64,000 nucleotides of DNA, taken from assembly GCF_965227365.1 (NCBI RefSeq), contig NZ_OZ245754.1, positions 2,462,777-2,526,776 on the forward strand, given 5' to 3'. Both the position numbers and the translations under genes were made by a program. Of this stretch, positions 15,242 to 45,281 are shown one piece after another (position 1 is the stretch's first letter; the number at the start of each line of letters is the position of its first letter). Below the pieces are notes generated by a model that had not been told where the DNA came from, did no database searches, and was given only the letters and a program-made list of their open reading frames with translations. Source of the DNA: Hwanghaeella sp. (GTDB lineage Bacteria > Pseudomonadota > Alphaproteobacteria > UBA8366 > Aestuariispiraceae).

Positions 15242-15285
15242 GATACTCTCCTACTCTGACTGAATTTACCGCGCGTTTGGATCGA

Positions 15286-16260: not shown

Positions 16261-16277
16261 GGGTATTTCCTCTCGGC

Positions 16278-16294
16278 AATGCTCATACAGCATT
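16278..16294. promoter_or_regulatory. inverted repeat AATGCT-N5-AGCATT in the arginase/lrp divergent region (candidate operator)
   Basis: Perfect 6-bp arms inside the AT-rich 127-bp intergenic region. Confidence 0.3.
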
Positions 16295-16387
16295 TGTACG
16301 ACAGGGATATGACGGCATATAGTCGGATAATTGTGCATTTTTTCTATCAAACTGACCAAATTGACGATCAATAATAGGCATATTGGC

Positions 16388-26648: not shown

Positions 26649-26747
26649 GATTTCCTCCCATATTCGACCTGTAATCCAGGTTCACACGAAACGATATCCT
26701 TGAAAGTTTATTGCGTGAGTTTCGATTTATTTTATAATTGTTGCGTT

Positions 26748-27761: not shown

Positions 27762-29177
27762 TCACAGAAACTCGAGCATCTCTTCGCGTTCTTCCGCATA
27801 CACCGTATAGAAGCTGCGCTCCCATTCCTTCATCTTGAAGTCCAGATAGATATCGCGGAACTCGGCGCCGAACGTCTCGGCGACCAGCGGGTCGATCTCG
27901 AACCCTTCCAGTGCCTCCAGCAACGTGCGCGGCAAACGGCGGATGGCCCCCCCCTTCACCTTGTGAACGCCCTTGGCCGACGCCTTGCCCAGGCTTTGAT
28001 AAAGGTTCTGGTTGAACGGTCTGCCCGGATCGGCGTTCTTGGCGATGCCCTCCAGGCCGGCGCTCAGGGACAAGGCGGCGGAAAGATGGAAATTGGCCGA
28101 CATGTCCGGTGCGCGGTTCTCGATACAGGGGCGGCTCATCGGCAGGCGCAGCATGGCGGACCGGTTATTGTCGCCGTAACAGCGCAGCACCGGCGCCCAG
28201 CTCATGTCCGGCATGGCGCCCTGAGCCAGCAATCCCTTGTATGAGTTATGCGTCGGACAGGTAATCGCCGACAGCGCTTGGGCATGATCCAACAGCCCCG
28301 CCACGAAATGATATCCCAGATCCGGGAAAGCGATACCGTGCTTTTCCGCCAGCGCGCCCGTCCCCATCGCGTCACGATCGAACAGGTTCACGCCGGTCTC
28401 GGCATCGGCCAGCGACATATTGAAATGCGCGCCCGATCGGAAGTCGGTGGAGAACGGCTTTGGCATGAAGGAGGCCACCAATCCCATCTGGGATGCGATC
28501 GACTTTGCCATCAAGCGGAAGAAGGTGACGCGATCGGCCATGGTCAATGCATCGGCATAGTCGAAATCGGTTTCGAACTGGCCGTGCCCGCCTTCCGCGT
28601 CGAAGGAATAGACGCCCCAGCCCAGTTCGTTCATTGCGGTCACCAGCGGGTCCAGGAACACCGACCCCAGAACCGTCTGGTTGACGTCATAGGCCGGGCA
28701 AGGCCCTTTGAACCGTCGTTCCTGAACAGGTTCGATGCCGTCTTCCGTTTTGCGATAGACGTAGAACTCCGTCTCGACGCCGAGGTTGAAGACGTAGCCC
28801 TGCTTCGCGGCTTCCGCGACCGCCTTTTTCAGAATGGTACGGGAACAGTTCGCATAGGGCTCTCCGTGATAGTAAAGGTCGGCCGCAAACCAGGCGAAGC
28901 GCTTGTCCCAAGGCAGAACGGTCATGGAGCTCAAATCCGGGACGGCCGCGCATTCGTCCTGCTCGGGACCGACCAGACCCATCCCATCCATCGCCCCCAC
29001 GGTGAACAGTTCGGAGCCCTTGGCCATTTTTTCGAACCGGTCGATCGGAACCGTCTTGGCCTTCGGCACGCCGTTCACGTCGACATAGGCGGCGAAGCAG
29101 TATTTGACCCCCAACTCCTCCAGTTTCCGCTTCGTTTCGGCAATCAAGGCCGGGTCATTCACACTCGCTTCGCTCAT
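27762..29177 (-). CDS. glutamine synthetase family protein (GlnT / gamma-glutamyl-amine ligase-like)
   Basis: 471 aa with GS catalytic-domain pattern (GVETEFYV, GHGQFE, SFMPKP, NRSAMLRLP). Confidence 0.85.
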   Translation of the reverse strand: MSEASVNDPALIAETKRKLEELGVKYCFAAYVDVNGVPKAKTVPIDRFEKMAKGSELFTVGAMDGMGLVGPEQDECAAVPDLSSMTVLPWDKRFAWFAADLYYHGEPYANCSRTILKKAVAEAAKQGYVFNLGVETEFYVYRKTEDGIEPVQERRFKGPCPAYDVNQTVLGSVFLDPLVTAMNELGWGVYSFDAEGGHGQFETDFDYADALTMADRVTFFRLMAKSIASQMGLVASFMPKPFSTDFRSGAHFNMSLADAETGVNLFDRDAMGTGALAEKHGIAFPDLGYHFVAGLLDHAQALSAITCPTHNSYKGLLAQGAMPDMSWAPVLRCYGDNNRSAMLRLPMSRPCIENRAPDMSANFHLSAALSLSAGLEGIAKNADPGRPFNQNLYQSLGKASAKGVHKVKGGAIRRLPRTLLEALEGFEIDPLVAETFGAEFRDIYLDFKMKEWERSFYTVYAEEREEMLEFL

Positions 29178-29221
29178 TTGGCACCCCCAAAAACAGGTTC
29201 AATGGATTTGGGGAAGTTTCA

Positions 29222-29236
29222 GCAAAAAGAGGGCCA
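29222..29236 (-). promoter_or_regulatory. sigma-54 (-24/-12) promoter candidate for the GS-like gene
   Basis: Minus strand reads TGGCCC-tcttt-TTGCT with canonical GG-N10-GC spacing, about 45 nt upstream of ATG 29177. Confidence 0.55.
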
Positions 29237-29280
29237 TTGCCGCGCCTCAGCGCCGAATAGAAGCCAAGCCGTTGATTTCT

Positions 29281-29307
29281 GTAGGCCGGCACATTGATCC
29301 GGACTAC
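29281..29307. promoter_or_regulatory. inverted repeat GTAGGCCGG-N9-CCGGaCTAC (candidate activator site between the divergent sigma-54 promoters)
   Basis: 9-bp arms with 1 mismatch. A related TAGGC-N5-GCCTA lies at 29378-29392. An AT-rich, IHF-like tract lies between them. Confidence 0.25.
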
Positions 29308-29434
29308 CCGGGTAAATGTCCATTTTTTAATCATGCCTATTTTTTGACCATTCGAAAAAATGAATCAGTTCAAAGTTTAGGCAGAACGCCTACCCTCAAC
29401 CGAAAAAACCGAACAAATTCAAACAGAACCGGGC

Positions 29435-29450
29435 TGGCATATCCATTGCT
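29435..29450 (+). promoter_or_regulatory. sigma-54 (-24/-12) promoter for the creatininase/ABC operon
   Basis: TGGCAT-atcca-TTGCT, a near-perfect match to TGGCAC-N5-TTGCW, 78 nt upstream of ATG 29528. Confidence 0.65.
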
Positions 29451-29527
29451 CTTCCCTCTTCATCCGCGTTTTGCCGAAACAGCCATATCGGCACCGGCAA
29501 TGGGCTCGAAACCGCGTAGGAGTTTAC

Positions 29528-30301
29528 ATGCCCCGTTGGGATCTGATGACCAGCACCGAGATCGGCGACGCCATCGCGTCGGGCATTGATCTGGCCATCC
29601 TGCCGGTTGGCGCGACGGAGCAGCACGGCCCTCATCTGGCGACCGGTTGCGACACGGTCTCGGCAGAGACCATCGCCGTTCTGGCGTCAGAGAAAAGCGG
29701 TGCCTTGGTCCTACCCGGCATCCCCTATGGATGCTCGCTCGGCCATACGGACAAATGGCCCGGAACGCTCTCGCTCCACCCCATGACATTGACTCAGGTC
29801 GTCCTGGAGTCGTGCCGCTGGCTGGCAAAAAACCGCATCCGCAAGGTGCTTCTGCTGTCAGGGCACGCGACAAACGACCCGCCGCTGAAAAGCGCAATCC
29901 TTCAACTCCGCTATGAGTTCCCCGATTGCCGTTATGCGACCATGGGGCTGTGGGAAATCTCCCGCCGGGCGCGGGACCTCTATCTGCGCGACGGCGACGA
30001 TATTCACGCCAATCGGGGCGAGACCTCGATCCTGATGCATCTGCGCCCGGAAATGGTGCGCCCGGACCACGCCGAAGATGTCGGCGACGTCACGCCGGGC
30101 AAGGTCTTTTCCTATGCCATGCCGGCTACGACCCCGAACGGTGTTGTCGGCAGACCGACAGAATCCAGCGCCGAAGACGGCGAGATGATGGTTCGGACCA
30201 TCGTCGAAGATTTGGAGAATTGGATCGAAACGGCACTGGCCGAGGGCTGGCCGGATGTCCCGCATGCCTGCGGTCCCGTGGCCGCCGAGCAACAGATTTG
30301 A
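29528..30301 (+). CDS. creatininase-family amidohydrolase
   Basis: ATG 29528 with AGGAG SD. Family motif LPVGATEQHGPHL...LLSGHATN...ANRGETS. Confidence 0.8.
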   Translation: MPRWDLMTSTEIGDAIASGIDLAILPVGATEQHGPHLATGCDTVSAETIAVLASEKSGALVLPGIPYGCSLGHTDKWPGTLSLHPMTLTQVVLESCRWLAKNRIRKVLLLSGHATNDPPLKSAILQLRYEFPDCRYATMGLWEISRRARDLYLRDGDDIHANRGETSILMHLRPEMVRPDHAEDVGDVTPGKVFSYAMPATTPNGVVGRPTESSAEDGEMMVRTIVEDLENWIETALAEGWPDVPHACGPVAAEQQI

Positions 30302-30428
30302 CGACAGGTTCGAACCAAGGCGCCGCAAGCAAAAAAGTGCGCCGGACGGACGGGGAAGTGAGACGGCCCACAAGCCGAGTTTCACGCGGGGCTCAACCCG
30401 CGATCTGTGGAGAAGGAGAGTATTTGCA

Positions 30429-31526
30429 ATGCTGACCAACAAGAAATCGCTGAAGAGGTTCTCGGTGGGGAAGATGGCGTCGGCCGTGGCCATCGCCGCC
30501 GCCCTGATGACCGGCGCCGTCGGTGCCGCCGAAGCGAAAACCTATAAATTCGCCTACAACATCTATGTCGGCTTCATGCCGTATGGCTGGATGGAGAAAA
30601 GCGGCATTCTCGACAAATGGGCCAAGAAATATGGTGTCGATATCGAGGTCATCCAGGTCAACGACTATGTCGGCGGCATCAACCAGTTCACCGCCGGAGA
30701 GATTGACGGCATGGCCGTCGCCTCGATGGACGGGTTGACCATCCCCGCCGCCAGCGGCGTCGACACCTCCATCGTTCTCGCCGGTGACTTCTCGAACGGG
30801 AATGACGGGATCCTTTCCAAGAACATTACCGACATCAAGTCGCTGAAGGGTGAAACCATTCACCTCTTTGAGCTGACCGTGTCGCACTATCTGCTGTCCC
30901 GGGCCCTGGAACTGAACGGCCTGTCCCTGCGCGACGTGAAGACCGTCAACATCACCGACGCGGATATCGCGCCGGCCTATATGGGGTCGGATGAAATCCA
31001 GCATGCCGTCACCTGGAACCCGATGCTGCTGCAAATGGAAACCAAGGTCGCCGGCACCAAGCGCATCTTCGACAGCGCATCCACGCCGGAGGAGATTGTC
31101 GACGTCATGCTGATGCATACGAAGACGGTCAAGGAGAACCCCGCCGTCGCCAAAGCCCTGGTCGGTGCCTGGTATGAAACCATGGCAATCATGAATGGCG
31201 GCGACGCCGCGGCCGAATCCATGATCGCGGACCTCGCCGACGCGTCCGGCGGTTCCGTCGATGAATACAAGGCCCAGCTCGCCAGCACCAAGATGTACTA
31301 CGATCCCGCCGAAGCCCTCGACCTGATGAATTCCAAACGTCATCAGAAGACCTGGGATTTCGTTCGCACCTTCTCCTACGATGTCGGTCTGTTCGGCGAA
31401 GCCGCCGCCTCGGCTGATTTCATCGGCATCGAATTCCCGGACGGCACTGTCCTGGGGGACAAGGGTAACATCCAGCTGCGCATCGACTCCTCCTTCACCG
31501 AAATGGCCGTGAAGGGCGAGCTCTGA
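30429..31526 (+). CDS. ABC transporter periplasmic binding protein (NitT/TauT-like, of the type found in urea-carboxylase regions)
   Basis: ATG 30429. Signal peptide ...GAVGAAEA. NMT1/SsuA-like fold pattern. Confidence 0.78.
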   Translation: MLTNKKSLKRFSVGKMASAVAIAAALMTGAVGAAEAKTYKFAYNIYVGFMPYGWMEKSGILDKWAKKYGVDIEVIQVNDYVGGINQFTAGEIDGMAVASMDGLTIPAASGVDTSIVLAGDFSNGNDGILSKNITDIKSLKGETIHLFELTVSHYLLSRALELNGLSLRDVKTVNITDADIAPAYMGSDEIQHAVTWNPMLLQMETKVAGTKRIFDSASTPEEIVDVMLMHTKTVKENPAVAKALVGAWYETMAIMNGGDAAAESMIADLADASGGSVDEYKAQLASTKMYYDPAEALDLMNSKRHQKTWDFVRTFSYDVGLFGEAAASADFIGIEFPDGTVLGDKGNIQLRIDSSFTEMAVKGEL

Positions 31527-31628
31527 TCGCCGGTCGTCAGGAACGCTGGCGCAGCCAGGGCCTCGGCTGCGTCGGCTTCCGCGATCGCCCCATTCTTTAC
31601 GTCAACGCGCAGGACAAAGGTCACGGAA

Positions 31629-32441
31629 ATGCGTCGCGCCATTAATTACGTCCCGGACCGGCATAGCGGTCTGCTTCTGGCGATCGTGCCGTTCGCTTTT
31701 CTCCTCGGCGTCTATTTCATCGGGTCCGACGCACGGTTGAGCGCCAATCCGGACGACAAGCTGATGCCGGGGCTGCAAGCCTTCGTCGATGCGATCAATT
31801 CCCTGGCCTTCACCGAGAACAGGCGCACGGGCGAATATGTTTTCTGGACGGATACGCTCATCAGCCTGCAGCGTATTTTTCTCGGCCTTTCGATTTCGAC
31901 CGTCATTGCGGTTGTCCTTGGCCTGCCGATCGGTCTGCTGCCGTATCTAAATCGGTTGTTCGGTCCGTTCATGGCGGCCTTCTCGCTGATCCCGCCGCTG
32001 GCCGTCCTTCCGATCCTTTTCATCATTTTCGGATTGGGCGAACTTTCGAAGATCGTCCTGATCATCTTCGGCGTCGCCCCTTTTCTGGTCCGCGACATGG
32101 CCATGGCGACCGTCGCCATCCCGAAAGAACAGATCGTCAAGGCGCAGACTTTGAGCGCATCGAGTTGGCAGATCCTGATCCACGTTGTTTTCCCGCAGAT
32201 CCTGCCGCGCTTGATCGACTCGCTGCGCCTGATGCTGGGCGCAACCTGGCTGTTCCTGATCGCCGCGGAGGCAATCGCTTCGGAAGGCGGTTTGGGATAC
32301 CGGATCTTCCTCGTCCGGCGTTATCTCGCCATGGATGTCATCCTGCCCTATGTCGCCTGGATAACCCTCCTGGCCTTCCTGATGGATTACCTGTTGATGC
32401 TAGGCTCGCGCGCCTTGTGCCGTTGGCACCACATTCGATGA
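31629..32441 (+). CDS. ABC transporter permease (NitT/TauT family)
   Basis: 270 aa with 6 TM helices and an EAA-like loop (AAEAIASEGGLGY). Confidence 0.85.
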   Translation: MRRAINYVPDRHSGLLLAIVPFAFLLGVYFIGSDARLSANPDDKLMPGLQAFVDAINSLAFTENRRTGEYVFWTDTLISLQRIFLGLSISTVIAVVLGLPIGLLPYLNRLFGPFMAAFSLIPPLAVLPILFIIFGLGELSKIVLIIFGVAPFLVRDMAMATVAIPKEQIVKAQTLSASSWQILIHVVFPQILPRLIDSLRLMLGATWLFLIAAEAIASEGGLGYRIFLVRRYLAMDVILPYVAWITLLAFLMDYLLMLGSRALCRWHHIR

Positions 32442-32463
32442 ACCGGCAAAGGAACGACGCGAT

Positions 32464-33342
32464 ATGACCGAGATCACGATCAATAACGTCTTCAAGGAAT
32501 ATAACGGCGTCCCGGTGCTGGAACGGGTTAACGTGACGCTGCCAGATCACGAGTTCTGCCTGATCCTGGGGTCCTCGGGCGCCGGCAAGAGCACGCTTCT
32601 GCGTATGCTGTTGTCCCAGGAAACACCGACGCGCGGCGAGATATTGATCGATGGCGAACCGATCGATGTGGAGCCCCAGGCTGACCGTGGAGTCGTGTTT
32701 CAGCGCTATTCCGTTTTCCCTCACAAGACCGTATTGGCCAATGTCATGGCCGGCCCCAGTTTTCGCCAATCGCGGTTTGCCGGATGCCTGTTCGGATCAA
32801 GAAAGGCGCAGCTTCGCGACCGAGCGATGGAATTGCTGCAACAGGTCGGATTGGCGGATGCGGCGGAGAAATATCCGGCCCAGCTATCCGGCGGCATGCA
32901 ACAGCGTCTTGCCATTGCACAGGCCCTGATCATGGAACCGAAAGTGCTGTTGCTGGACGAACCCTTCGGCGCGCTCGACCAAAGCACCAAGAAGTCGATG
33001 CATAAACTGATCCTGGATCTGTGGCGCGCCAACAAGATGACCATCGTGATGGTAACCCACGATATCCAGGAAGCCTTCACGCTGGGCACCCGCATCCTGA
33101 TGGTCGACAAGACCCGACAGGATCCGCAGGCACCCGAAGCCTATGGATCGACTATCGTCCACGACATCCGCCTGGACCCCACCCGCAAGGCGCCTCTCGA
33201 CCCGGACGAAAGTGAAGAAAAACAGAGCATGGAGGACATCTTCCTGAAATGGGCCGGAAAGATGGAACATGCGGTTATCAGCGATGAGACACCCGCCGGG
33301 TCGGAAAAACCCGATGCGATCAAAACCAGGGAAGTCGCCTAG
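32464..33342 (+). CDS. ABC transporter ATP-binding protein
   Basis: Walker A GSSGAGKST, signature LSGGMQQR, Walker B LLLDEP. Confidence 0.92.
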   Translation: MTEITINNVFKEYNGVPVLERVNVTLPDHEFCLILGSSGAGKSTLLRMLLSQETPTRGEILIDGEPIDVEPQADRGVVFQRYSVFPHKTVLANVMAGPSFRQSRFAGCLFGSRKAQLRDRAMELLQQVGLADAAEKYPAQLSGGMQQRLAIAQALIMEPKVLLLDEPFGALDQSTKKSMHKLILDLWRANKMTIVMVTHDIQEAFTLGTRILMVDKTRQDPQAPEAYGSTIVHDIRLDPTRKAPLDPDESEEKQSMEDIFLKWAGKMEHAVISDETPAGSEKPDAIKTREVA

Positions 33343-33345
33343 TCG

Positions 33346-34092
33346 ATGACAACTCAGTCCACTGAAAGCTTGCCGCTTTCCGGCAAGGTCTTCGCCGTGA
33401 CCGGCGGCGCCAGAGGCATCGGCGCAGCGGTCTGTTCCGTCCTGAACGCGCGTGGCGCAATCGCTGTCGCGTTCGATATCGATCCCGCCGCCGCGGCAGG
33501 TCGTGAAGCCATAGCCTGCGACGTCACCGACGAAACCTCGGTCAAAGCCGCCTTCGCCGCGCTTCACGAAACCCATGGCCGATTGGACGGGGTCGTCAGC
33601 AATGCGGGCATCATGGTTGAGAAACCTCTCGCGGAGACGACGATGGAGGATTTCGACCGCGTCATCGCGATCAATCTGCGCGGTGTGTTCCTGACGGCCA
33701 AATCCGCCCTGCCCTATTTCCGCAAAGGCATGCCAGATGCGGAGAAACCGCGCATCGTCAACGTCGCCTCCGAACTCGGCCATCTAGGTCGGCCTGAATA
33801 TGCCGCCTATTGCGCCAGCAAAGGCGGGGTCATCACCCTCACACGCGCCCTAGCCCGGGAACTGGCGCCCGACATCCTGGTCAACACGCTGGCCCCCGGC
33901 CCGACGGATACGGACATGCTGCGTGCGGAAAAGAACTACGACAGTTGGGTAAAGGACGGCGAAGGTATTCCGCTGGGACGGGTCGCAACGGCGGAGGAAG
34001 TCGCCTTGGCGGCCGCCTTCCTGTGCGGTCCCGATTCCCGTTTCATGACCGGCACAATCATCGATGTGAATGGCGGCGCGGCGATGTATTGA
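33346..34092 (+). CDS. SDR family oxidoreductase
   Basis: TGGARGIG, NAG, and the YCASK catalytic motif. 3-bp gap after the ABC ATPase gene. Confidence 0.88.
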   Translation: MTTQSTESLPLSGKVFAVTGGARGIGAAVCSVLNARGAIAVAFDIDPAAAAGREAIACDVTDETSVKAAFAALHETHGRLDGVVSNAGIMVEKPLAETTMEDFDRVIAINLRGVFLTAKSALPYFRKGMPDAEKPRIVNVASELGHLGRPEYAAYCASKGGVITLTRALARELAPDILVNTLAPGPTDTDMLRAEKNYDSWVKDGEGIPLGRVATAEEVALAAAFLCGPDSRFMTGTIIDVNGGAAMY

Positions 34093-34104
34093 TCGCCGCG
34101 TATC

Positions 34105-35160
34105 CTAACTCGCCTGCTTTTCCAGGTGGAAACGGCCGAACTGATTGGTCTCCAGCGATCCGTCAGGCAGATCGACATCCTTCAGATATTTGAAGGTCTG
34201 AATGGTCTGCGCCACCAGGTGGTCGCCGGCGGAAATCGGACCGTATCTGGTTTCCGTGCCCGCCTCGATCAATTCCGGTATCGGCGAGACCACGGTCTCG
34301 TAGTCTGTCGCGAAGAACAGCGGAAAGGAATAGCGTTCCTCGTTCACCCGATCGACACGGTGCGAATTGGCCACATAGAGACCGTTCGACCAGTTCTCCA
34401 GCATATCGCCGATATTGATGACGAAGGTGCCTTCCACCGGCGGCGCGTCGACCCATTCGCCGTCATTGCGCAGAACCTGCAGCCCCGGCGCGGTCGGCAG
34501 CAGGATGGTGAAAAGTTCGTAATCCGTGTGGGCGCCTATCCCCATCCGTTTCAGCCGCGCCTGTTCCTCCGCGCTCACCACCTTGTCGGTTTCCCAATAA
34601 TGGATCAGGCGCAACTGGCTGGTCGGCTTTGAAACATGCTTGACGAAAATGTCTTCGGGTAGTCCCAGTCCAAGGGCGAAACCGCGCAGCAAATCCTTGC
34701 CCAGATCCAAAGCCGCCGCGTAATAGCGGTCGACGGCCGCCTTGTGATCGGCCACTTCGTCCGGCCAGACATTCGGGCCGAGCATCCGATTTCCGGCGAG
34801 ATAATCGGGGTCGTCCGCCGGCAGGTCCAGCGCGGTGTCGAAGGCTTCCTTCAAATCGCCGCCGCCTTCGCCGTAGAATTCCTCACCCTGGGGAACATAA
34901 CCGCGATGGTTGGTCGACTTGCCGATATAATAGTCCATCTTGGTTTCGAGCGGCAGAGCGAACAGCGCCTTGGCTGCCTGCTTCAGCCCTTCCACCGTCT
35001 CTTCCGGGATTCCGTGGCCGGCGATATAGACAAAGCCGACATCGCGGGCGGCGCGGTCAAGATCCTTCACCGCCGCCATGCGCTTTTCCGGGTCAGACGA
35101 CCGAAGGCCGGAAACATCCACCAAGGGGATCTCGGAAAAGTTCGTCCGCGCTTTGGCCAT
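34105..35160 (-). CDS. 2-oxoglutarate/Fe(II)-dependent oxygenase, isopenicillin-N-synthase/EFE family (paralogue A)
   Basis: 351 aa. Facial triad GIGAHTDYE ... SHRV, and RYSFPLF (2OG-binding Arg-x-Ser). Confidence 0.85.
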   Translation of the reverse strand: MAKARTNFSEIPLVDVSGLRSSDPEKRMAAVKDLDRAARDVGFVYIAGHGIPEETVEGLKQAAKALFALPLETKMDYYIGKSTNHRGYVPQGEEFYGEGGGDLKEAFDTALDLPADDPDYLAGNRMLGPNVWPDEVADHKAAVDRYYAAALDLGKDLLRGFALGLGLPEDIFVKHVSKPTSQLRLIHYWETDKVVSAEEQARLKRMGIGAHTDYELFTILLPTAPGLQVLRNDGEWVDAPPVEGTFVINIGDMLENWSNGLYVANSHRVDRVNEERYSFPLFFATDYETVVSPIPELIEAGTETRYGPISAGDHLVAQTIQTFKYLKDVDLPDGSLETNQFGRFHLEKQAS

Positions 35161-35313
35161 AACCGCTTCCTATCGCAATACCGATATTGATACCTGGACA
35201 AATATTGTGCAGCGCAATAGATCGCTTGTCCAATGTTCACTGCTCCCACATTATAGGCCGAGCGGAAAAATTTTGCAGCGCACCACTGCCATTCCAATAG
35301 AAGGCAAACCCAC

Positions 35314-36081
35314 GTGATCTCACTTACCGGCAAAACCGCGTTGATCACCGGTGGCAGCCGCGGCATCGGTTACGGTATCGCGGAACGTTTTCTGGAGGCG
35401 GGCGCGCGCCTACATATCCTTGCCGAAACCGAGGCTGCCTTGGAAGCCGCTGACGCATTGGGCACGCAAGTGACCGGGCATGTCTGCGACATCACGGACG
35501 GGGACGCGGTCGCGACGCTGGTCGCCTCCCTCGGACCGATCGACATCCTGGTCAATAATGCCGGCCTGGAACGGATCACCGCGCTGACCGATATGTTCGA
35601 CCCGGCACCGGTCGTCGAAGAGACCTTCCGGCGGATCATGGATATCAACGTGACCGGCACGTTCCTGTTGACCCGCACTGTCCTGCCGCTGATCCCCGAT
35701 GGCGGAACGATCATCAACACCGCCTCAATCTGGGGGAAGTCGGGCCCTGCCTGGTATTCCGCCTATTCCGCCTCGAAACATGCCGTCATCGGATTGACCC
35801 GCGTCTGGGCCCGTGAACTCGGGCAGCGGCGGATCAGGGTCAATGCCGTTTGCCCTGGCTGGGTGGAAACGGAACCGGCGATGCTGTCACTGCAACGGCT
35901 TTCGGACGCAACTAGCCGGGACCCGGACGACCTGTTGAACGAGATCGTCTCGGCGCAGGACCTGCCGGGTTTGATGAAGCCCGCCGATGTCAGCGGATTA
36001 TACGTTTTCCTGGCCAGCGACCTCGCCGCCAGCATCACGGGACAGGCAATCAATGCGGATCGCGGCGAAGTTCACGGATAG
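35314..36081 (+). CDS. SDR family oxidoreductase
   Basis: GTG start. TGGSRGIG, NNAG, YSASK. Confidence 0.86.
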   Translation: MISLTGKTALITGGSRGIGYGIAERFLEAGARLHILAETEAALEAADALGTQVTGHVCDITDGDAVATLVASLGPIDILVNNAGLERITALTDMFDPAPVVEETFRRIMDINVTGTFLLTRTVLPLIPDGGTIINTASIWGKSGPAWYSAYSASKHAVIGLTRVWARELGQRRIRVNAVCPGWVETEPAMLSLQRLSDATSRDPDDLLNEIVSAQDLPGLMKPADVSGLYVFLASDLAASITGQAINADRGEVHG

Positions 36082-36100
36082 GCGCCCGGCGCCCCGCCGG

Positions 36101-36763
36101 TCAGTCCGGCTTCAACGCGTGGGCGACGTCTGCGCAGGTCGCGATCCAGCCGAACAGATGGCCTTCGCTTTGAATTATCGCCATGGTCGCGTCATGCAAG
36201 GCACGGTCGAACGTCGCGCAACCGTCGGCCAGTGTCAGGCAGCGATATCCTCTGTCCACGGCTTCCCGCAACGTCGACTGGACGCAGCATTGGGTCGTGA
36301 CGCCGCCGATGATCAAATGGGTGATCCCGCGCGCCCGCAGGCGCAAATCCAGATCGGTCGCGTAAAAGGAACCGAAGCCCGGCTTGTCGATGATCCATTC
36401 ACCGGGTTCCGGTTGCAATTCGTCGATGAAGTCATGTCCGTATTCCCCGCGGACGAGATAACGCCCCAACGCCCCCGGCGCACCGATTTCAGCGCCCGCG
36501 TCCCGGCTGCGTTGCCGCTTCGCCTCGTTGAGGTCCGACAGGTCGGGCACATGCCCTTCCCGTGTATGGGCGACGGTCAATCCGCTGGCGCGCGCCGCCT
36601 GCAGCAGGTCACGCAGGGCCGGCACAATCGCCTGAACCGGACCGCTCTCGCCGTTCGCCGCTTCGTTCTGGATGAAGTCCCTTTGCATATCGATCAGAAG
36701 AAGCGCCGTCTTATCGGGCGGGAAGGAATATGTCCGATCAGCAAAGGCGGGAACGGTGATCAT
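36101..36763 (-). CDS. isochorismatase-family cysteine hydrolase
   Basis: ATG 36763 with GGAG SD 8 nt upstream (TTG 36790 is an alternative). Motifs ALLLIDMQRDF, a Lys region, and GVTTQCCVQST (catalytic Cys). Confidence 0.8.
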   Translation of the reverse strand: MITVPAFADRTYSFPPDKTALLLIDMQRDFIQNEAANGESGPVQAIVPALRDLLQAARASGLTVAHTREGHVPDLSDLNEAKRQRSRDAGAEIGAPGALGRYLVRGEYGHDFIDELQPEPGEWIIDKPGFGSFYATDLDLRLRARGITHLIIGGVTTQCCVQSTLREAVDRGYRCLTLADGCATFDRALHDATMAIIQSEGHLFGWIATCADVAHALKPD

Positions 36764-37472
36764 GCCTGATACTCCAGCGTCGAAAATCAATTGGGAAACC
36801 GGACCGGCACCGATCCGCTACAGAGGATTGTGGCGCCGCCGCCTGCTGGTGGAAGAGGACGGCAGCCGCGATGCGGATACCATAGTCTGGTGGCTGCAGA
36901 GCCGACAACTCTTTGCCGACATCCGGCTGTCCCCCGATCGCAGCGCCGTTGCCGGCGCGACCTGTTTCGGCGATCTAGATCACGCCGGACTGCAGACGCT
37001 TGTTCTACAGGAAGGGTTTGCCGGTTTTCTGGAATGGACCGACACGGCCTGTGCCTGGCGTCGAAAGGTGGACTATCGCCCCCTACCCGGTCCGCCCGAT
37101 GAAGGCTGGATGGAGGCAAAAGGAAACGATCTGATGATCGAGCGCGGCATCCATCGCGGCTACCTGGAAGAATGGGTGCAAACCGCCGCCACCGATGCCG
37201 TCATGAACGACTGGATCTGGCATGATGGCTGGAACGGCCCGACACTTTTGCGGATCGGCAGCACCTTCATGTTCGCCGAGGATCGGCGCGGCAGCCCACC
37301 GCACGCAGAGAATTTCGAAACGAATGTCCTGGCCGCATTAGGGGACGAGGCTGCCCTCGCCGCGCTTCTCGATTGTGAAATCTCCTTCGGGAAGATCGGC
37401 GCGGACGGAACCTGGTCGATCACGATGTCCACCATTCCCTGGCGCGAGGGCGAAACGGTCACCGCCCTCTGA
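36762..37472 (+). CDS. hypothetical Trp-rich protein
   Basis: 236 aa with gene-like GC3 codon usage. No recognised family. Confidence 0.5.
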   Translation: MPDTPASKINWETGPAPIRYRGLWRRRLLVEEDGSRDADTIVWWLQSRQLFADIRLSPDRSAVAGATCFGDLDHAGLQTLVLQEGFAGFLEWTDTACAWRRKVDYRPLPGPPDEGWMEAKGNDLMIERGIHRGYLEEWVQTAATDAVMNDWIWHDGWNGPTLLRIGSTFMFAEDRRGSPPHAENFETNVLAALGDEAALAALLDCEISFGKIGADGTWSITMSTIPWREGETVTAL

Positions 37473-37537
37473 GCAATATTTTTTGCACTGCAACACTTCC
37501 CTTTTTCTGTCCCGCAGGTATACTTTCTATTCAAAGA

Positions 37538-37645
37538 TTGCGGCTAGGGTTCCGATCGTCATCACGGCGGTGTCTGGACCGAGAGCTGACGCCTGGTCCA
37601 TCAACAGACCGGGTCCACGGCGGGATAAAAGCCCGGGAGGTCATG
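37538..37645 (+). promoter_or_regulatory. guanidine-I riboswitch (ykkC-yxkD class) aptamer
   Basis: Conserved blocks are in the right order and spacing: CTAGGGTTCCG (37544-54), TGGACCGAGAG (37575-85), CACGGCGGGATAAAAGCCCGGGAGG (37616-40). Lies in the 300-nt leader of the DUF1989/carboxylase operon. Confidence 0.85.
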
Positions 37646-37773
37646 GTGGTGCTGCGGTGCGCCCAACCTCCGAGACGTTTGTCTCCCGGATATCAGGACC
37701 GCTCCGTTCAGCATCAGAGCTTCAATTGCCGTCCGCCCCTGGAAAGGGCAGGCCGGCGGTGACGAGGGAGGCG

Positions 37774-38613
37774 ATGATGACGGCCGAAACAGCGAGCATT
37801 GACGAGTTGAAAGCCCGTTATGCCGCATTGAAAGAAACAGGGCAGAAGGAAGGCGAGTTCGAGGCCAGATTGGCCGGCGCCCCTGCAGCGCCCGTGACGA
37901 TCCCGGAAAACAGGATATCGAAACAGGAAACGGTCCCCGGCGGCTGGTATTGGACCACGACCGTGAAGCGCGGGCAGACGCTGCGCATCGTGAATTCGCA
38001 CGCCACGCCCGGTATCGCCCTGCAGATCTGGAACCAACACGACCCGTCCGAACGGTTCAATTCCGCCGATACGATCAAGGTTCAGTGGACGGCGCGGATC
38101 GGCAAGGGCCGTGTGCTGTTGTCCGATATGGGCCGGGTCTTGATGGCGATTACCGAAGACACCTGTGGTTATCATGACTGCGTCGCCGGACACTCGACGG
38201 CAATCACCAACGAAAAGAGTTATGGTTCGGGCACCCTAAGGAACAGCCCTGTCCCGGTGCGCAACAGCCGCGATAACTTCCTGATCGCCGCCGCGAAACT
38301 GGGGCTCGGCAAGCGGGACGTCCATCAATCCTTTTGCGCCTTCGCCCCCGTCGAGACGGGCGAAGAAGGCGCCCTGACCTGGAAGGACGGCGCCCTGAAA
38401 GCCGGCGATTTCATCGATCTGCGCGCGGAAATGGATTGCATCCTCTGCCTGTCGAATTGTCCCCATCCACTGGCACCGGGCGGGAGTTACGATCCTCAAC
38501 CCGTTGCCGTGACCATCTGGGATGCGGGCCCGGTCGCCGAGAATGATCTGTGCCGGACCGGAACCGCGGAAGCGGTCCGCGCCTATGAGAATACGGACCC
38601 GCTTTTCGACTGA
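37774..38613 (+). CDS. urea-carboxylase-associated DUF1989 protein 1 (carboxyguanidine deiminase subunit-like)
   Basis: ATG 37774 after GAGGGAG SD. Motif RGQTLRIVN...ERFNSADT...DTCGYHDCVAGHS. The upstream part of the ORF-track frame covers the riboswitch and is not coding. Confidence 0.8.
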   Translation: MMTAETASIDELKARYAALKETGQKEGEFEARLAGAPAAPVTIPENRISKQETVPGGWYWTTTVKRGQTLRIVNSHATPGIALQIWNQHDPSERFNSADTIKVQWTARIGKGRVLLSDMGRVLMAITEDTCGYHDCVAGHSTAITNEKSYGSGTLRNSPVPVRNSRDNFLIAAAKLGLGKRDVHQSFCAFAPVETGEEGALTWKDGALKAGDFIDLRAEMDCILCLSNCPHPLAPGGSYDPQPVAVTIWDAGPVAENDLCRTGTAEAVRAYENTDPLFD

Positions 38614-38681
38614 GTCCCTTGGATATGCCGATGCGCGGCGGGCGCGGAACGACCCGCATGACCGCCGCCGGGAGATGAAAC

Positions 38682-39323
38682 ATGACCACATTGAGCAACC
38701 TGCAACCGGACACCGCCAAACAACGCCTTAAAGTGCCGGCAAACGCCCCCTTCTCCGCCATCGTGAAGAAGGGGCAGACCATTCGCATCGTCGACAGTTT
38801 CGGCCAACAGGCCGTCGACACCCTATTCTACAACGCCGCGGATACGGACGAGCGCTATTCCGCGCATGACACGGTCGCCGCCCAAGGCGCCGCCTATATC
38901 ACCACCGGATCCAAGGTGCTTTCCAACGAAGGCAACCTGATGTTGACGGTAACCGCGGATACGGTCGGCTATCACGACACATCCGCCGGCGCGTGTTCGG
39001 TTGAATCGAACACGGTTCGCTTCGGCCACCACACGCGCTTCATGCATGCCTGTCGCGAGAACTTCGTTCTGGAAGCCGCGAAATACGGCATGGACAAGCG
39101 AGACATCGTTCCCAACATCAACTTTTTCATGAACGTCCCGATCGAGCCGGACGGCAATCTCGCCATCGTCGACGGCTTGTCGGAACCCGGCAACTATGTG
39201 GAGTTGAAGGCCGAGATGGATGTGATCTGCCTCATCTCGAACTGTCCGCAGGTGAACAATCCCTGCAACGGGTTCAATCCAACGCCGATCGAAATCCTGA
39301 TCTGGGATCGAGAACCGGCATGA
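38682..39323 (+). CDS. urea-carboxylase-associated DUF1989 protein 2 (carboxyguanidine deiminase subunit-like)
   Basis: 213 aa. Motif KGQTIRIVDSFGQQAVD...ERYSAHDT...DTVGYHDTSAGACS. 4-bp overlap with the carboxylase gene. Confidence 0.8.
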   Translation: MTTLSNLQPDTAKQRLKVPANAPFSAIVKKGQTIRIVDSFGQQAVDTLFYNAADTDERYSAHDTVAAQGAAYITTGSKVLSNEGNLMLTVTADTVGYHDTSAGACSVESNTVRFGHHTRFMHACRENFVLEAAKYGMDKRDIVPNINFFMNVPIEPDGNLAIVDGLSEPGNYVELKAEMDVICLISNCPQVNNPCNGFNPTPIEILIWDREPA

Positions 39324-42300: not shown

Positions 42301-42946
42301 GATCGGCGGCGCCTATATGTGCGTTTATGGCATGGAAGGGCCTGGTGGGTATCAATTCGTCGGGCGTACCGTTCAGGTCTGGAACACCCATCGCCAAACC
42401 GGGAATTTCAAAGAAGACAAACCCTGGCTTCTGCGTTTCTTCGACCGCATCAAGTTTTACCCCGTCACCAACGAAGAACTCACCGAAATGCGTGACGGCT
42501 TCCTGCATGGAGAAGCGGAACTGAAGATCGAGGACGGCACATTCGACCTGGCCGAGTATCACCGGTTCCGGGCACAAAATGCGACGTCGATCGAGACCTT
42601 CCGAAGCAGGCGTCAAGCCGCCTTCGACGAAGAACGCGCGCGCTGGGAAGCGCAAGGGATCGCGGCCATTGTCGATGAAACCGATCTGGCGCCGGAACCG
42701 GTCGGCGTTGATCTGGCCGACGGCGCCATGCTGATCGAAGCACCGATGAACGGGTCGGTTTGGAAAGTCTCTGTCGAAATCGGTGATCGCATTTCCGCCG
42801 GCGACAAGGTCGCCGTCCTGGAAGCCATGAAGACAGAAATCGCTGTGGATGCAACGCAGGACGGGCACATCACCGATATCCTGTGCAAGCCGGGACAGAT
42901 CGTCCGGCCGGGTGACCCGCTGCTGGTCATTCAAACGGAGGCTTGA
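39320..42946 (+). CDS. uca: biotin-dependent urea/guanidine carboxylase
   Basis: 1208 aa. N-terminal biotin carboxylase (KVLIANRGEIAVRIIRT, MLKSTAGGGGIGL), central KipA/KipI-like carboxyltransferase domains, and a C-terminal biotinyl motif VLEAMKTEI. Confidence 0.92.
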   Translation: MINKVLIANRGEIAVRIIRTLREMGLPSVAVYSDADRHAAHVRLADEAVRIGPAPVTDSYLNRDAILAACKQTGADAVHPGYGFLSENPDFAESLEAEGIRFIGPTPDQMRIFGLKHSAREAAENSGVPLLPGSGLVDTLEEAKAEAERIGYPVMLKSTAGGGGIGLQLCERAEDLPELFETVRRLARSNFSDPGIFIEKYIAHARHVEVQIFGDGKGHVVSLGERDCSLQRRNQKVVEETPAPNLPQATRTALIDAALSLGRSVDYRSAGTVEFIYDGKADEFYFLEVNTRLQVEHPVTELVTGEDLVSWMVNLAADKMDLAAYPDVLPVRGAAMEVRVYAEDPGKGFQPSAGPLTHVSFPEGVRVDSWIETGSDVSMYYDPMLAKVIVHADTRDAAADALSDALRKSAIYGIETNLAYLRAISESAMFRAGHVFTKALDRFDFTPNTVDVLAPGTHSALQDWPGRVGFWDVGVPPSGPMDALNFRLANALLGNAPDAAGLEMTMTGPTLRFNRDAVIVLTGADFHAKLDGDPVDCYRPISIHRGQTLSLGKAGDGGVRAYLAVAGGFDAPLYLGSRATFDLGGFGGHATGNLKSGDVLRLTDKADAPVLRGALPGSHWPHLPDDWEIGVLYGPHGAPDFFTDSDIEILFSTPYEVHFNSARTGVRLIGPKPAWARPDGGEAGLHPSNIHDNAYAVGAIDFTGDMPIILGPDGPSLGGFTCPAVVAKAELWKMGQLRPGDRVRFKRLALAEAEALEEQQEAFLNALSFGRDVEQAAPPSPSILKASGLREDAVVARDETNGIEICYRRTGEDFLLVEFGEQELDLDLRVKAHLLMQRIQAEEMDTVIDLTPGIRSLQVHFDNRRVKPSDMLAKLREFQSDLPALDDVILPSRVVHMPLSWDDESTRIATKRYQDLVRPDAPWCPWNIEFIRRINGLDSVDDVKKVVFDADYMVLGLGDVYLGAPVATPVDPRHRLVTTKYNPARTWTPQNAVGIGGAYMCVYGMEGPGGYQFVGRTVQVWNTHRQTGNFKEDKPWLLRFFDRIKFYPVTNEELTEMRDGFLHGEAELKIEDGTFDLAEYHRFRAQNATSIETFRSRRQAAFDEERARWEAQGIAAIVDETDLAPEPVGVDLADGAMLIEAPMNGSVWKVSVEIGDRISAGDKVAVLEAMKTEIAVDATQDGHITDILCKPGQIVRPGDPLLVIQTEA

Positions 42947-42949
42947 GGC

Positions 42950-43207
42950 ATGATGCCTGACGCACCGAAAACGACAATGTTCGAACTGAGCCTGGACAGT
43001 TTGGCCGTGGCGATTGTCGTCGAGGCCTTTGGCAGTTTTGCCGAGCTGATCCCACGGCAGCTGGGTATCGGCACAGAGGCCCTGGCAAACGGACTGCAGG
43101 TCAAAGGTTTCATCTGCGAACCGACTGGTATCGCAGCCGCAACCGAGATCACGCAATATGGCCGATGGCGATCCTATTGCGCGGAAACTGCCGCCTGGAG
43201 TGCATAA
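42950..43207 (+). CDS. 85-aa ORF matching only the C-terminal domain of allophanate hydrolase (remnant or stand-alone domain)
   Basis: FGSFAELIPRQLGIGTEALANGLQVKGFICEP...EITQYGRWRSY resembles the AtzF/DUR1,2 AH C-terminus. GGAGG SD present. Occupies the slot where full-length AH normally follows the carboxylase. No amidase-signature domain is present. Confidence 0.5.
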   Translation: MMPDAPKTTMFELSLDSLAVAIVVEAFGSFAELIPRQLGIGTEALANGLQVKGFICEPTGIAAATEITQYGRWRSYCAETAAWSA

Positions 43208-43273
43208 AAGCACAAGACCAAAACCAATTGGCACGGAGAAATAGCGTTTACAGAACCGAACAGGAGCGCCGCC

Positions 43274-44350
43274 ATGGAACTGCCGAAGTATGATGCTAAC
43301 GCCGCCATCCGCCCGACCGATGTCCGCAAGGGCACCGGCTATGCGGCAGAGCGCATCGATTTCGATAGCATCCCCATCGTCGATATCGGTGCGGCGATCA
43401 ACGGAGATCCGGACGGCAAGCAAAGGGCCGCGGCGGCGTTGAGAGAGGCCGCCGCGAATGTCGGTTTCTTCTACATCAAGAACCACGGCGTCCCCGACGA
43501 CGTCATCAGCAAGGCGCAAGCGGCCGCGGATCGTTTCTACGGACTGCCAATAGCGGTGAAATCGCAATACGACGTTGCCAAGGCGAAACGCCACCGGGGC
43601 TATGTTCCGGTCGGCGGTCTCAGCGCCGATCCGACCACTTCCGACCTGCAGGAAGGATACGAGGTCGGCCTGGAAGTGCCTGAGGACGATCCCGACTATC
43701 TATCCGGCAATCCACTGTTCGCGCCGAACAACTGGCCGGCGGAACTACCGGAATTCCGGGCCGACATCTATGCCTATTTCGAAGAGATGATGAAACTCGG
43801 CCGCACGATGTACCGGCTGTTCGCGCTGGCGGTCGGCATGCCGGAAGACTATTTCGACGACAAGGTGACCAAGCCCTGCGCGCAGCTGCGTGTGATGTAC
43901 TACCCGGAGACGGACCCGAAAGACAGCGCGGTCGGCATCGGCGCCCATACGGACTACGAAAGCTTCACTGTGCTCTACCAGTCGGAATCCGGACTGCAGG
44001 TACAGAACCGCGCCGGCGCCTGGATCGAAGCCCCGCCGATCCCCGGTACCTTCATCGTCAACATCGCCGACATGATGATGCGATGGACCAACGAACTTTT
44101 CGTGTCCACACCGCACCGCGTGATCAATACGTCCGGCAGGAAACGCTTCTCCCTGGCGCTGTTCTTTGCGGCTGATTACGACACGGTGGTGGAGTGCCTG
44201 CCTAGTTGCACGAATGCTGACAATCCGCCGAAATATCCGCCGACGCATTTCGGATATTGGATCGAAAACATGCATTCCTATTCCTACGCTTATCGCTGGG
44301 ACGAACGCGGCAAACTGCCGAACCCGGAACTCACGGACACGAGAGGCTGA
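43274..44350 (+). CDS. 2-oxoglutarate/Fe(II)-dependent oxygenase, isopenicillin-N-synthase/EFE family (paralogue B)
   Basis: 358 aa. GIGAHTDYE ... PHRV and RFSLALF. By eye roughly 40% identical to the 34105-35160 product. Confidence 0.85.
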   Translation: MELPKYDANAAIRPTDVRKGTGYAAERIDFDSIPIVDIGAAINGDPDGKQRAAAALREAAANVGFFYIKNHGVPDDVISKAQAAADRFYGLPIAVKSQYDVAKAKRHRGYVPVGGLSADPTTSDLQEGYEVGLEVPEDDPDYLSGNPLFAPNNWPAELPEFRADIYAYFEEMMKLGRTMYRLFALAVGMPEDYFDDKVTKPCAQLRVMYYPETDPKDSAVGIGAHTDYESFTVLYQSESGLQVQNRAGAWIEAPPIPGTFIVNIADMMMRWTNELFVSTPHRVINTSGRKRFSLALFFAADYDTVVECLPSCTNADNPPKYPPTHFGYWIENMHSYSYAYRWDERGKLPNPELTDTRG

Positions 44351-44378
44351 GCCCCGCCCCATTTGAAAGGAACGAGCT

Positions 44379-45281
44379 ATGATCCAGAATCCCATTCCCT
44401 GGCCGAACGGCGCGAAATGCGCCTGCGCGATCACCTTCGATATCGATGCCGACAGCTTGATCCATGTGGCACGGCCCGGCGACTCCCATAACCGCCTATA
44501 CCCGATCAGCATGGGGAAATACGGTCCCGACGTCGCCATTCCACGAATTCTGGAGACCTACAAGCGGCTTGGCATCAAGCAGAGCTTCTTCGTCCCCGCC
44601 TGGTGCATCGACCAATACGCGCCGGTGATGGAGAAGATCCTGGAAGGCGGCCACGAGATCGGCCATCACGGGCTTATTCATGAAGACCCGATCGAGACGA
44701 TGGGCCCGCGTCAGCGCGAAGCCTTCGAAAAGGCGCTTTCAATCCATCGGCGCGTGTGCGGCGGCAAGCCCAAGGGTTATCGCGCCCCGGTCTATAACAT
44801 TACGCCGCAAGTCGTGGATCTGTTGATCGAACATGGCTTCGCCTACGACTCTTCCCTGATGGGGGATGATATCCCCTATCTACTGGAGAAGGACGGCAAC
44901 AGCATCGCGGAAATCCCGGTGCATTGGGGCTGCGACGACTGGCCCCCCTTCGCGCATTACGAGGAAATCGGTTACATGATGCATGTACAGCCGCCATCGC
45001 TCGGCTATCAGGGTTTCTGGGAGGAATTCGAGGCCCAGTATGAAGCCGGCGGTTTCTTCATGATGATAGTACATCCCTTCCTGACCGGCCGCCTCGCGCG
45101 GTGGCGGGTTGTCGAAAAGTGGTTGGAAAACACCTTGGAGACGAAGGATGTCTGGTTCGCCAGACTGGACGAAATCGTCGACTACGTCCGCAGCCTGGAA
45201 AAGGCCGGCACCTATACCCCGCGCAAGGATCTGCTTCCCTACTATCCCGAACAGGTAAACCGGGCCGAAGCAGCGGAATAA
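44379..45281 (+). CDS. polysaccharide deacetylase family protein (PuuE-allantoinase-like size and architecture)
   Basis: 300 aa. NodB-like motifs (TFDIDADS, GHEIGHHG, YRAP). Confidence 0.78.
   Translation: MIQNPIPWPNGAKCACAITFDIDADSLIHVARPGDSHNRLYPISMGKYGPDVAIPRILETYKRLGIKQSFFVPAWCIDQYAPVMEKILEGGHEIGHHGLIHEDPIETMGPRQREAFEKALSIHRRVCGGKPKGYRAPVYNITPQVVDLLIEHGFAYDSSLMGDDIPYLLEKDGNSIAEIPVHWGCDDWPPFAHYEEIGYMMHVQPPSLGYQGFWEEFEAQYEAGGFFMMIVHPFLTGRLARWRVVEKWLENTLETKDVWFARLDEIVDYVRSLEKAGTYTPRKDLLPYYPEQVNRAEAAE

Follow-up and report, generated by a model that had tools for sequence, protein, structure and literature searches.

A conserved gene cluster in Hwanghaeella joins a guanidine carboxylase pathway to candidate guanidine-releasing enzymes

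We describe a block of genes in the alphaproteobacterium Hwanghaeella sp. (assembly GCF_965227365.1, contig NZ_OZ245754.1). The block occupies positions 27762-45281 (~17.5 kb) of a 64-kb stretch of DNA, referred to below as the window, and consists of 16 open reading frames (ORFs) and one riboswitch. With moderate confidence, we read it as a nitrogen-scavenging cluster built round the guanidine carboxylase pathway, with at least two branches that would release guanidine. Homology to assayed enzymes suggests import, carboxylation, deimination and methylguanidine demethylation and, probably, deamidation of guanylurea or an analogue. Note that all substrates named here are predictions, as are the roles of six further proteins in the block. 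A previous, sequence-only reading of the window had proposed a funnel, turning substituted or cyclic guanidines or amidines into free guanidine. We retain, on homology, branches for methylguanidine and guanylurea; gene context is what ties the other six enzymes to the idea.

Scans with Pfam and NCBIfam reveal the make-up of the block (Table 1). There is a glutamine synthetase-like (GS-like) ligase, a creatininase-family protein, and an ATP-binding cassette (ABC) importer comprising an NMT1-type binding protein, a permease and an ATPase. Two short-chain dehydrogenases (SDR1 and SDR2), two DIOX_N/2OG-FeII_Oxy oxygenases of the 2-oxoglutarate-dependent (2OG) type (2OG_A and 2OG_B), an isochorismatase-family hydrolase and a 236-aa protein are also present. 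The remaining families are two DUF1989 proteins, a 1208-aa urea/guanidine carboxylase and a polysaccharide-deacetylase-fold protein (PDA). The sequence-only reading had called the same families in the same places, and all of its calls are borne out, with a count of 16 ORFs in place of 17 genes. It had also treated the enzymes around the carboxylase core as lying outside any described pathway. This is out of date for three of them, discussed below; for the other six, the link to guanidine is one of context.

The trunk of the pathway is recognised from curated models. The binding protein, both DUF1989 proteins (CgdA-like and CgdB-like) and the carboxylase (Gca) pass NCBIfam cutoffs for the "urea carboxylase-associated" set. 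This gene set is now understood to be the guanidine carboxylase pathway (PMC12508155). The ABC importer would take up guanidine-type compounds, Gca would carboxylate guanidine, and the CgdA and CgdB proteins (CgdAB) would deiminate carboxyguanidine to allophanate. The riboswitch, and the presence of CgdAB, suggest that Gca prefers guanidine over urea. An exact-sequence look-up of the window carboxylase returned no record. The core had been placed at 37.5-43 kb; the transporter lies outside, at 30.4-33.3 kb. Antisense to the carboxylase gene is a 1156-aa ORF (40124-43594, minus strand); this is an ordinary high-GC artefact and not a gene.

The last trunk enzyme, allophanate hydrolase, had been counted as a core member. 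What remains is an in-frame deletion relic of 85 codons. Compared with the intact atzF of a close relative, the ORF retains ~21 N-terminal and ~60 C-terminal codons, with an in-frame gap of ~1.6 kb between them, and its match to allophanate hydrolase covers the last 58 residues only. No intact allophanate hydrolase is present in the block, and there is no second one in the 64-kb window. Since atzF is deleted, the encoded trunk would end at allophanate, and the AtzF step would have to come from elsewhere in this genome. Among related copies of the block (individual loci are numbered L001 onwards), atzF is intact in L002, L003, L004, L036 and L037, and absent without trace in L075 and L107. The gca stop codon abuts the 2OG_B start codon in both L075 (8890-8900) and L107 (16252-16254). 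We conclude, from comparison of these copies, that atzF has been lost in the clade at least once. That the junctions differ among copies suggests more than one loss.

The first guanidine-releasing branch is predicted from the operon of Vreelandella boliviensis. Briefly, the guanidine carboxylase operon of this bacterium carries two extra genes, mgdH and mgdL (PMC12508155). The first of these encodes a 2OG oxygenase, MgdH, by which methylguanidine is hydroxylated. MgdL, which belongs to no known family, cleaves the resulting stable hemiaminal to guanidine and formaldehyde, and mutagenesis showed that D49 and R51 are required. Both the MgdH/MgdL activity and growth on methylguanidine were demonstrated (PMC12508155). 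Our alignment of 2OG_A with MgdH spans the full length of the protein, and the HxD...H motif and RxS-type region line up (GAHTDYE and SHRV). Furthermore, 2OG genes found near MgdL-like genes elsewhere always match 2OG_A better than 2OG_B. The 236-aa protein, previously described as a Trp-rich orphan, had no match in the Pfam and NCBIfam scans. It is a homologue of MgdL, with both catalytic residues kept: D53 and R55 (D53-I-R55) correspond to D49 and R51, and are invariant in 31 family members. The structure model is confident (predicted local distance difference test score 91.9), mostly beta and barrel-like. Comparison with solved structures gave weak matches only, to lipocalin-like barrels, and this fits the barrel reported in PMC12508155. 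Hence, MgdH would hydroxylate methylguanidine, and the MgdL-like lyase would split the hemiaminal, with guanidine and formaldehyde as products.

The second branch would depend on the isochorismatase-family hydrolase. This protein is closest to GuuH of Pseudomonas mendocina MET (57% identity, 236 bits), taken from plasmid CP098607 as the verified enzyme of that strain, followed by the biuret hydrolase BiuH (50%, 184 bits) and the triuret hydrolase TrtA (48%, 190 bits), a margin that is small for this subfamily. The Asp-Lys-Cys triad is contained in the segments IDMQRDF, IDKPG and TTQCCV, which align with GuuH, TrtA and BiuH. The purified P. mendocina MET enzyme hydrolyses guanylurea to guanidine (PMC9800807). 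However, enzymes of the subfamily with different specificities share up to 65% identity (PMC9800807), and so 57% identity does not settle the specificity of the hydrolase. The margin favours, as far as alignment can indicate, a guanylurea hydrolase, and the GuuH-like enzyme would deamidate guanylurea or a close ureido analogue. If the longest ORFs are taken, the hydrolase and mgdL-like start codons overlap (CATG, 36761-36764), as they do in L002 and L003. The gene caller sets a later hydrolase start in L107, and the choice of start may have created an artefactual overlap. Because the MgdH/MgdL and GuuH-like proteins are all homologous to characterised enzymes, the notion of a guanidine-releasing funnel gains support.

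Logically, the same genes might serve urea rather than guanidine. The carboxylase would then act on urea, and the isochorismatase-family enzyme would be a biuret or triuret hydrolase feeding allophanate. NCBIfam does call the carboxylase a urea carboxylase, the best NCBIfam model for the hydrolase is BiuH, and its best solved relatives are TrtA and BiuH. Conversely, the hydrolase scores 225 bits with the BiuH model (NF050097), well below the cutoff of 370. The operon is gated by a riboswitch of a guanidine-specific class, CgdAB, which acts on carboxyguanidine, is present, and the MgdH/MgdL homologues are guanidine-specific. Allophanate hydrolase, essential to a biuret route, is deleted. We consider a urea, biuret or triuret cluster very improbable.

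Conservation was assessed by scanning species-representative genomes with an MgdL alignment, which gave 29 loci, and by a second, metagenome scan anchored on PDA. The sequence-only reading would have lost ground if the neighbourhood were not conserved; synteny of the block extends to five further genomes or contigs (L002, L003, L004, L075 and L107), with the same gene order and orientation. Partial copies are present in L036 and L037. Hwanghaeella grinnelliae (Rhodospirillales) carries the whole block, including an intact atzF, with 83-93% protein identity (68% for MgdL); the block is also present in two metagenome-assembled genomes. In the most distant copy, L004, identities are 61-87% (47% for MgdL). 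Across copies, the extra genes are as well conserved as the core genes. One full copy, L003 (CAYGKA010000001.1), bears the record title "uncultured Flavobacteriaceae", although its block is the alphaproteobacterial one, with protein identities to the window of 82-94% (67% for MgdL). This contig is probably mis-binned or mislabelled.

Since the full copies all belong to one clade, the recurrence of parts of the block in distant lineages is the stronger argument for linkage. The isochorismatase-family gene, divergent from MgdL-riboswitch-cgdA-cgdB-gca, is found again in L005, L006 and L029, including Acuticoccus mangrovi. L012 has the same MgdL-riboswitch-cgdAB-gca arrangement, and an isochorismatase gene was not found at that locus. 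In Mariprofundus ferrooxydans, the order is binding protein-EamA-MgdL-MgdH-metallo-beta-lactamase hydrolase-creatininase-GS-like, followed further on by permease-ATPase-CgdA. Hyphomicrobium species have MgdL-binding protein-MgdH. Two Acidocella-type contigs, L034 (8766-12263) and L035 (8766-12232), contain a Rieske oxygenase-MgdL-SDR-creatininase operon with an adjoining LysR gene. This operon adjoins an NMT1-type ABC importer and a luciferase-like monooxygenase, and L035 also has a carboxylase and an allophanate hydrolase. Hence, MgdL pairs with a second oxygenase class. In the 26 loci outside the three syntenic relatives, the neighbours of MgdL are MgdH-like in 13, SDR1-like in seven, creatininase-family in five and carboxylase in five. 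Among the MgdL-anchored loci, 2OG_B and PDA occur together with MgdL only in the three syntenic relatives.

Control of the block appears to be split, as had been proposed, between two sigma-54-type sites, correctly oriented and conserved, and a guanidine-I riboswitch scoring above its gathering threshold. Both sigma-54-type sites have one mismatch to TGGCAC-N5-TTGC and occupy the same 350-bp gap between the GS-like and creatininase-family genes, each facing its gene. They are kept in four genomes (the window, L002, L003 and L004) while the surrounding gap has diverged. From the shuffle rate, ~0.01 site per strand is expected by chance in a 350-bp gap. Across the window there are six such sites against 4.4 expected, which is not above chance; the case for the two sites is hence one of position and conservation. 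These divergent promoters would drive the GS-like gene and the creatininase-importer-SDR1 operon, in response, we infer, to nitrogen limitation. The riboswitch lies 133 nt upstream of cgdA, and the same mgdL-riboswitch-cgdA placement occurs in seven related loci. No U-tract or intrinsic terminator was found after the aptamer, and so control may be translational. The predicted fold may occlude the Shine-Dalgarno sequence, with a z-score of just -0.65. No guanidine-II element was found here. Between gca, 2OG_B and PDA there is too little space for an obvious promoter, and the latter two genes are, consequently, probably on the riboswitch-controlled transcript. Judged from this layout, the riboswitch would gate cgdA-cgdB-gca-2OG_B-PDA.

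A further element may connect these transcripts. The 13-nt near-palindrome TTTTGCASYGCAA occurs three times in the 64 kb, allowing at most one mismatch, and every occurrence is in a promoter gap of the block. Two mark the mgdH/SDR2 gap and the third the riboswitch promoter region. The positions are kept in four relatives (L002, L003, L075 and L107) and not in L004. This hints at an operator, which may bind a shared regulator; no such regulator is encoded within the block. There is no enrichment in the window of the exact palindrome TTGC-N3-GCAA, and it is the longer, degenerate motif that is informative. The copy upstream of the riboswitch was considered as a sigma-54 site and rejected, having no GG at the right spacing. 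Also dismissed, as regulator of the block, was a LysR gene (26700-27707), which is transcribed divergently from a TRAP transporter operon and convergently with the GS-like gene, and which L107 lacks.

Table 1. Features of the block, in window coordinates.
Feature	Position	Strand	Evidence
GS-like ligase, nearest gamma-glutamylmethylamide synthetase (GmaS) and type III glutamine synthetase	27762..29177	-	Pfam Gln-synt_C; TIGR03105 447.9 bits, just under cutoff 469.6
sigma-54-type site TGGCCCTCTTTTTGC	29222..29236	-	45 nt upstream of GS-like start codon
sigma-54-type site TGGCATATCCATTGC	29435..29449	+	upstream of creatininase-ABC-SDR1 operon
Creatininase-family amidohydrolase	29528..30301	+	PF02633, 209 bits
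Periplasmic binding protein, carboxylase-associated ABC importer	30429..31526	+	TIGR03427 424.8 bits, cutoff 333.9; 44% identical to V. boliviensis operon binding protein
ABC permease	31629..32441	+	PF00528; 54% identical to V. boliviensis permease
ABC ATPase	32464..33342	+	PF00005; 50% identical to V. boliviensis ATPase
SDR1, short-chain dehydrogenase	33346..34092	+	Pfam/NCBIfam; start 3 nt past ATPase gene
2OG_A, probable MgdH orthologue (methylguanidine hydroxylase)	34105..35160	-	52% full-length identity to V. boliviensis MgdH, E 2e-122
Motif TTTTGCASYGCAA, two copies, mgdH/SDR2 divergent gap	35205-35217, 35271-35283	+	position conserved in L002, L003, L075, L107
SDR2, short-chain dehydrogenase	35314..36081	+	Pfam/NCBIfam; recurs as ABC-SDR2-SDR1-PDA in marine contigs
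Isochorismatase-family cysteine hydrolase, GuuH/BiuH/TrtA subgroup	36101..36763	-	PF00857; start may be later
MgdL-family protein, N-(hydroxymethyl)guanidine lyase homologue	36762..37472	+	BLASTP 2e-13, 28% full-length identity to V. boliviensis MgdL
Motif, third copy TTTTGCACTGCAA, just upstream of riboswitch	37481..37493	+	motif search
Guanidine-I riboswitch aptamer	37533..37641	+	RF00442 86.4 bits, gathering score 63; model positions 1-107 of 107
CgdA-like protein (UAAP1, DUF1989)	37774..38613	+	TIGR03425 273 bits, cutoff 206; start codon read from sequence
CgdB-like protein (UAAP2, DUF1989)	38682..39323	+	TIGR03424 333 bits, cutoff 285
Biotin-dependent guanidine/urea carboxylase (Gca), 1208 aa	39320..42946	+	TIGR02712 1846 bits, cutoff 1304; 54% identical to V. 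boliviensis Gca
atzF relic, 85-codon ORF	42950..43207	+	AtzF residues 539-596 of 601 matched; ends align to intact Hwanghaeella atzF
2OG_B, second IPNS/EFE-type 2OG oxygenase, MgdH paralogue	43274..44350	+	40% identical to MgdH, 41% to 2OG_A
PDA, polysaccharide-deacetylase-fold amidohydrolase	44379..45281	+	PF01522

If "island" was meant as acquired DNA, that description has been dropped: GC content is flat, there are no tRNA genes, and no mobility genes were seen in the annotated flanks. Some 11 kb upstream (14009-16605, minus strand) are two genes, one for a 439-aa arginase-family protein, a candidate guanidino-acid hydrolase, and the other for a class III aminotransferase. Their neighbours are ferredoxin-reductase-like, enolase-superfamily and SHMT-like genes.

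We turn now to the six further conserved proteins: the creatininase-like protein, the GS-like (GmaS-like) ligase, SDR1, SDR2, 2OG_B and PDA. For all six, gene context points to a guanidine role. The best solved relatives of the GS-like ligase are glutamate--methylamine ligases (9qur, 272 bits, and 7cql), and it would capture an amine product or ammonia. The creatininase-like protein keeps the metal and catalytic positions of creatininase except for E122, which is Thr (GHATN in place of GHYEN). With TIGR04448 it scores 109.7 against a cutoff of 235, and it is not an equivalog of creatininase. The best solved relative of 2OG_B is an ethylene/succinate-forming enzyme (9ovh). PDA shows 84-92% identity within the clade, and its best solved relative, 3rxz, has no known function. 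PDA was rejected as a PuuE allantoinase, scoring 58 bits with TIGR03212 against a cutoff of 425. The creatininase-like protein, the SDRs, 2OG_B and PDA would open further entry routes or process hydroxylated intermediates. Likely targets of the six proteins would be cyclic, N-alkyl and N-acyl guanidines, hydroxylated intermediates and amine products.

These proteins may encode an undescribed route from a cyclic or N-substituted guanidine to methylguanidine or guanidine. This proposal is a tentative one. It would make creatinine or creatine the most attractive substrate, and MgdL-family lyases general partners of N-demethylating 2OG or Rieske oxygenases, rather than a halophile curiosity. Creatinine is our leading candidate, as a hypothesis, because it holds an N-methylguanidine unit in a cyclic amide, and because its conversion to methylguanidine has been reported with no known enzymes. 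The report, of bacterial conversion, is that of van Eyk et al. 1968, as cited in PMC12623156. A creatininase-family hydrolase alongside a methylguanidine-consuming pair is what such a route needs. However, the link is purely hypothetical: the window hydrolase falls far short of the cutoff for a creatininase equivalog, and one of its metal ligands is substituted.

A different explanation is that the block is a mosaic of functionally separate nitrogen-scavenging units. The guanidine role would then be confined to riboswitch-cgdAB-gca, the importer and MgdH/MgdL, while SDR1, SDR2 and PDA, and perhaps 2OG_B, the creatininase-like and the GS-like protein, would handle an unrelated cyclic ureide, pyrimidine derivative or methylated amine. 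Relatives of the SDRs, PDA and 2OG_B do occur in settings with no guanidine genes, and so these proteins may act on non-guanidines. An ABC importer-SDR2-SDR1-PDA module is found with no guanidine gene in L061, L063, L064, L083, L098 and L102, and PDA relatives with 60-76% identity were recovered, in the PDA-anchored metagenome scan, from pyrimidine (URC-like) clusters. 2OG_B is a member of a large family, with relatives next to creatinase/M24, Rieske, GS-like and TMADH-like (amine dehydrogenase) genes, and its joint occurrence with PDA and MgdL is limited, as noted, to three syntenic relatives. Against this, the gca-2OG_B-PDA gaps, which close completely between gca and 2OG_B in L075, make control by the riboswitch probable. 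In addition, the linkage of SDR and creatininase genes to MgdL extends to distant lineages, and L004 keeps the gene order despite its divergence. We judge a mosaic to be unlikely.

One of the PDA contexts can be described further. At a marine locus (L038, 5883-14488), a PDA relative with 76% identity is accompanied by a PotABCD-like importer, a CDA-type deaminase, a GTP cyclohydrolase II-like protein, a DUF1688 protein and uracil phosphoribosyltransferase. We take the GTP cyclohydrolase II-like and DUF1688 proteins to correspond to URC1 and URC4, in which case the cluster resembles the URC pathway for pyrimidines in yeast and may be a bacterial pathway of this type. A literature search on bacterial URC-type clusters returned nothing on the PDA family.

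It is also conceivable that the SDRs and the PDA- or creatininase-fold hydrolases open no new entry routes, and instead handle oxygenase products. For example, oxidation of N-(hydroxymethyl)guanidine, or of another stable guanidino-hemiaminal, could give an N-acyl or N-formyl guanidine, and deacylation would then yield guanidine and formate, or another acid, with no free aldehyde. In keeping with this, the stability of N-(hydroxymethyl)guanidine is unusual, and a dedicated enzyme is required for it (PMC12508155). The recurrence of the oxygenase-MgdL-SDR-creatininase order, with 2OG or Rieske oxygenases, also agrees. The PDA and creatininase folds are those of de-N-acylase or cyclic-amide hydrolase families, a further point in favour. 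Conversely, MgdL is present and would already resolve the hemiaminal, the proposed oxidation step is without precedent, and the SDR-SDR-PDA module occurs in contigs with no oxygenase nearby. Such oxidation seems to us quite unlikely.

Several observations weigh against a guanidine-scavenging cluster with dedicated releasing branches, the reading that we favour. Full copies of the block come from a single, Hwanghaeella-related clade. The trunk as encoded stops at allophanate, with atzF deleted in the window and absent from L075 and L107. The MgdL-like protein is just 28% identical to the assayed enzyme and sits upstream of the riboswitch, not behind it. The GuuH call is one of 57% against 48-50% identity to BiuH and TrtA, in a subfamily of mixed specificity. 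SDR2-SDR1-PDA occurs with another NMT1-type importer and no guanidine genes, PDA relatives belong to URC-like pyrimidine clusters, and the contexts of 2OG_B relatives are varied.

That guanidine carboxylase operons can be extended by guanidine-releasing enzymes is already known, and the block is best understood by comparison with such systems. The operon of V. boliviensis (Sinn et al. 2025, PMC12508155; L031) shares the ABC importer, cgdA, cgdB and gca, and likewise has a guanidine-I riboswitch; it also encodes an IPNS-type 2OG oxygenase and an MgdL-family protein. Identities are 44-57% for the core proteins (CgdA 33%), 52% for MgdH and 28% for MgdL. In V. boliviensis, mgdH and mgdL form an adjacent pair, placed after gca and before atzF and behind the riboswitch, and there is a second, class II riboswitch. 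In the window, by contrast, mgdH and mgdL are 1.6 kb apart, on opposite strands and both upstream of the riboswitch, and atzF is deleted. Beyond V. boliviensis, the window has seven further genes, and the sigma-54 promoters as a second layer of control.

The second comparison is with the P. mendocina pathway from guanylurea to guanidine, which combines GuuH with Gca, CgdAB and AtzF (Tassoulas et al. 2021, as cited in PMC9800807). Here, as in the window, an isochorismatase-family cysteine hydrolase of the same subgroup is found together with the carboxylase pathway. The Pseudomonas hydrolase gene is unlinked to the carboxylase genes: strain MET has it on a plasmid, and strain GU at another place on the chromosome. 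The window gene, whose substrate is predicted, is instead divergently paired with mgdL directly upstream of the riboswitch, as in L005, L006 and L029. Finally, the canonical rhizobial uca cluster (L001; binding protein-permease-ATPase-UAAP1-UAAP2-uca-atzF) has the same seven families in the same order. In the window, 4.2 kb with five genes and the riboswitch are inserted between the ATPase gene and UAAP1, atzF is a relic, and two genes are added downstream and two upstream. A near-identity search of a plasmid collection gave matches of just ~73% at the DNA level, to rhizobial uca genes. We found no description, in the searchable literature, of the composite: a split layout under dual control, with a GuuH-like partner, a second oxygenase and four more conserved enzymes.

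Little is yet known about natural sources of free guanidine, a compound to which four riboswitch classes respond as their ligand. The cluster sets at least three candidate guanidine-releasing activities beside a mineralising pathway, in a conserved and testable set of genes. It also widens the range of MgdH and MgdL from halophilic gammaproteobacteria to marine alphaproteobacteria, Hyphomicrobium, Mariprofundus and actinobacteria, and MgdL is paired with Rieske oxygenases too. The arrangement suggests that control by nitrogen limitation, through sigma-54, may be combined with sensing of the product by the riboswitch. Repeated loss of atzF, if correctly read, raises the question of how these bacteria would clear allophanate. 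Should the creatinine hypothesis be true, the cluster would provide the enzymes so far missing from the creatinine-to-methylguanidine conversion reported in 1968.

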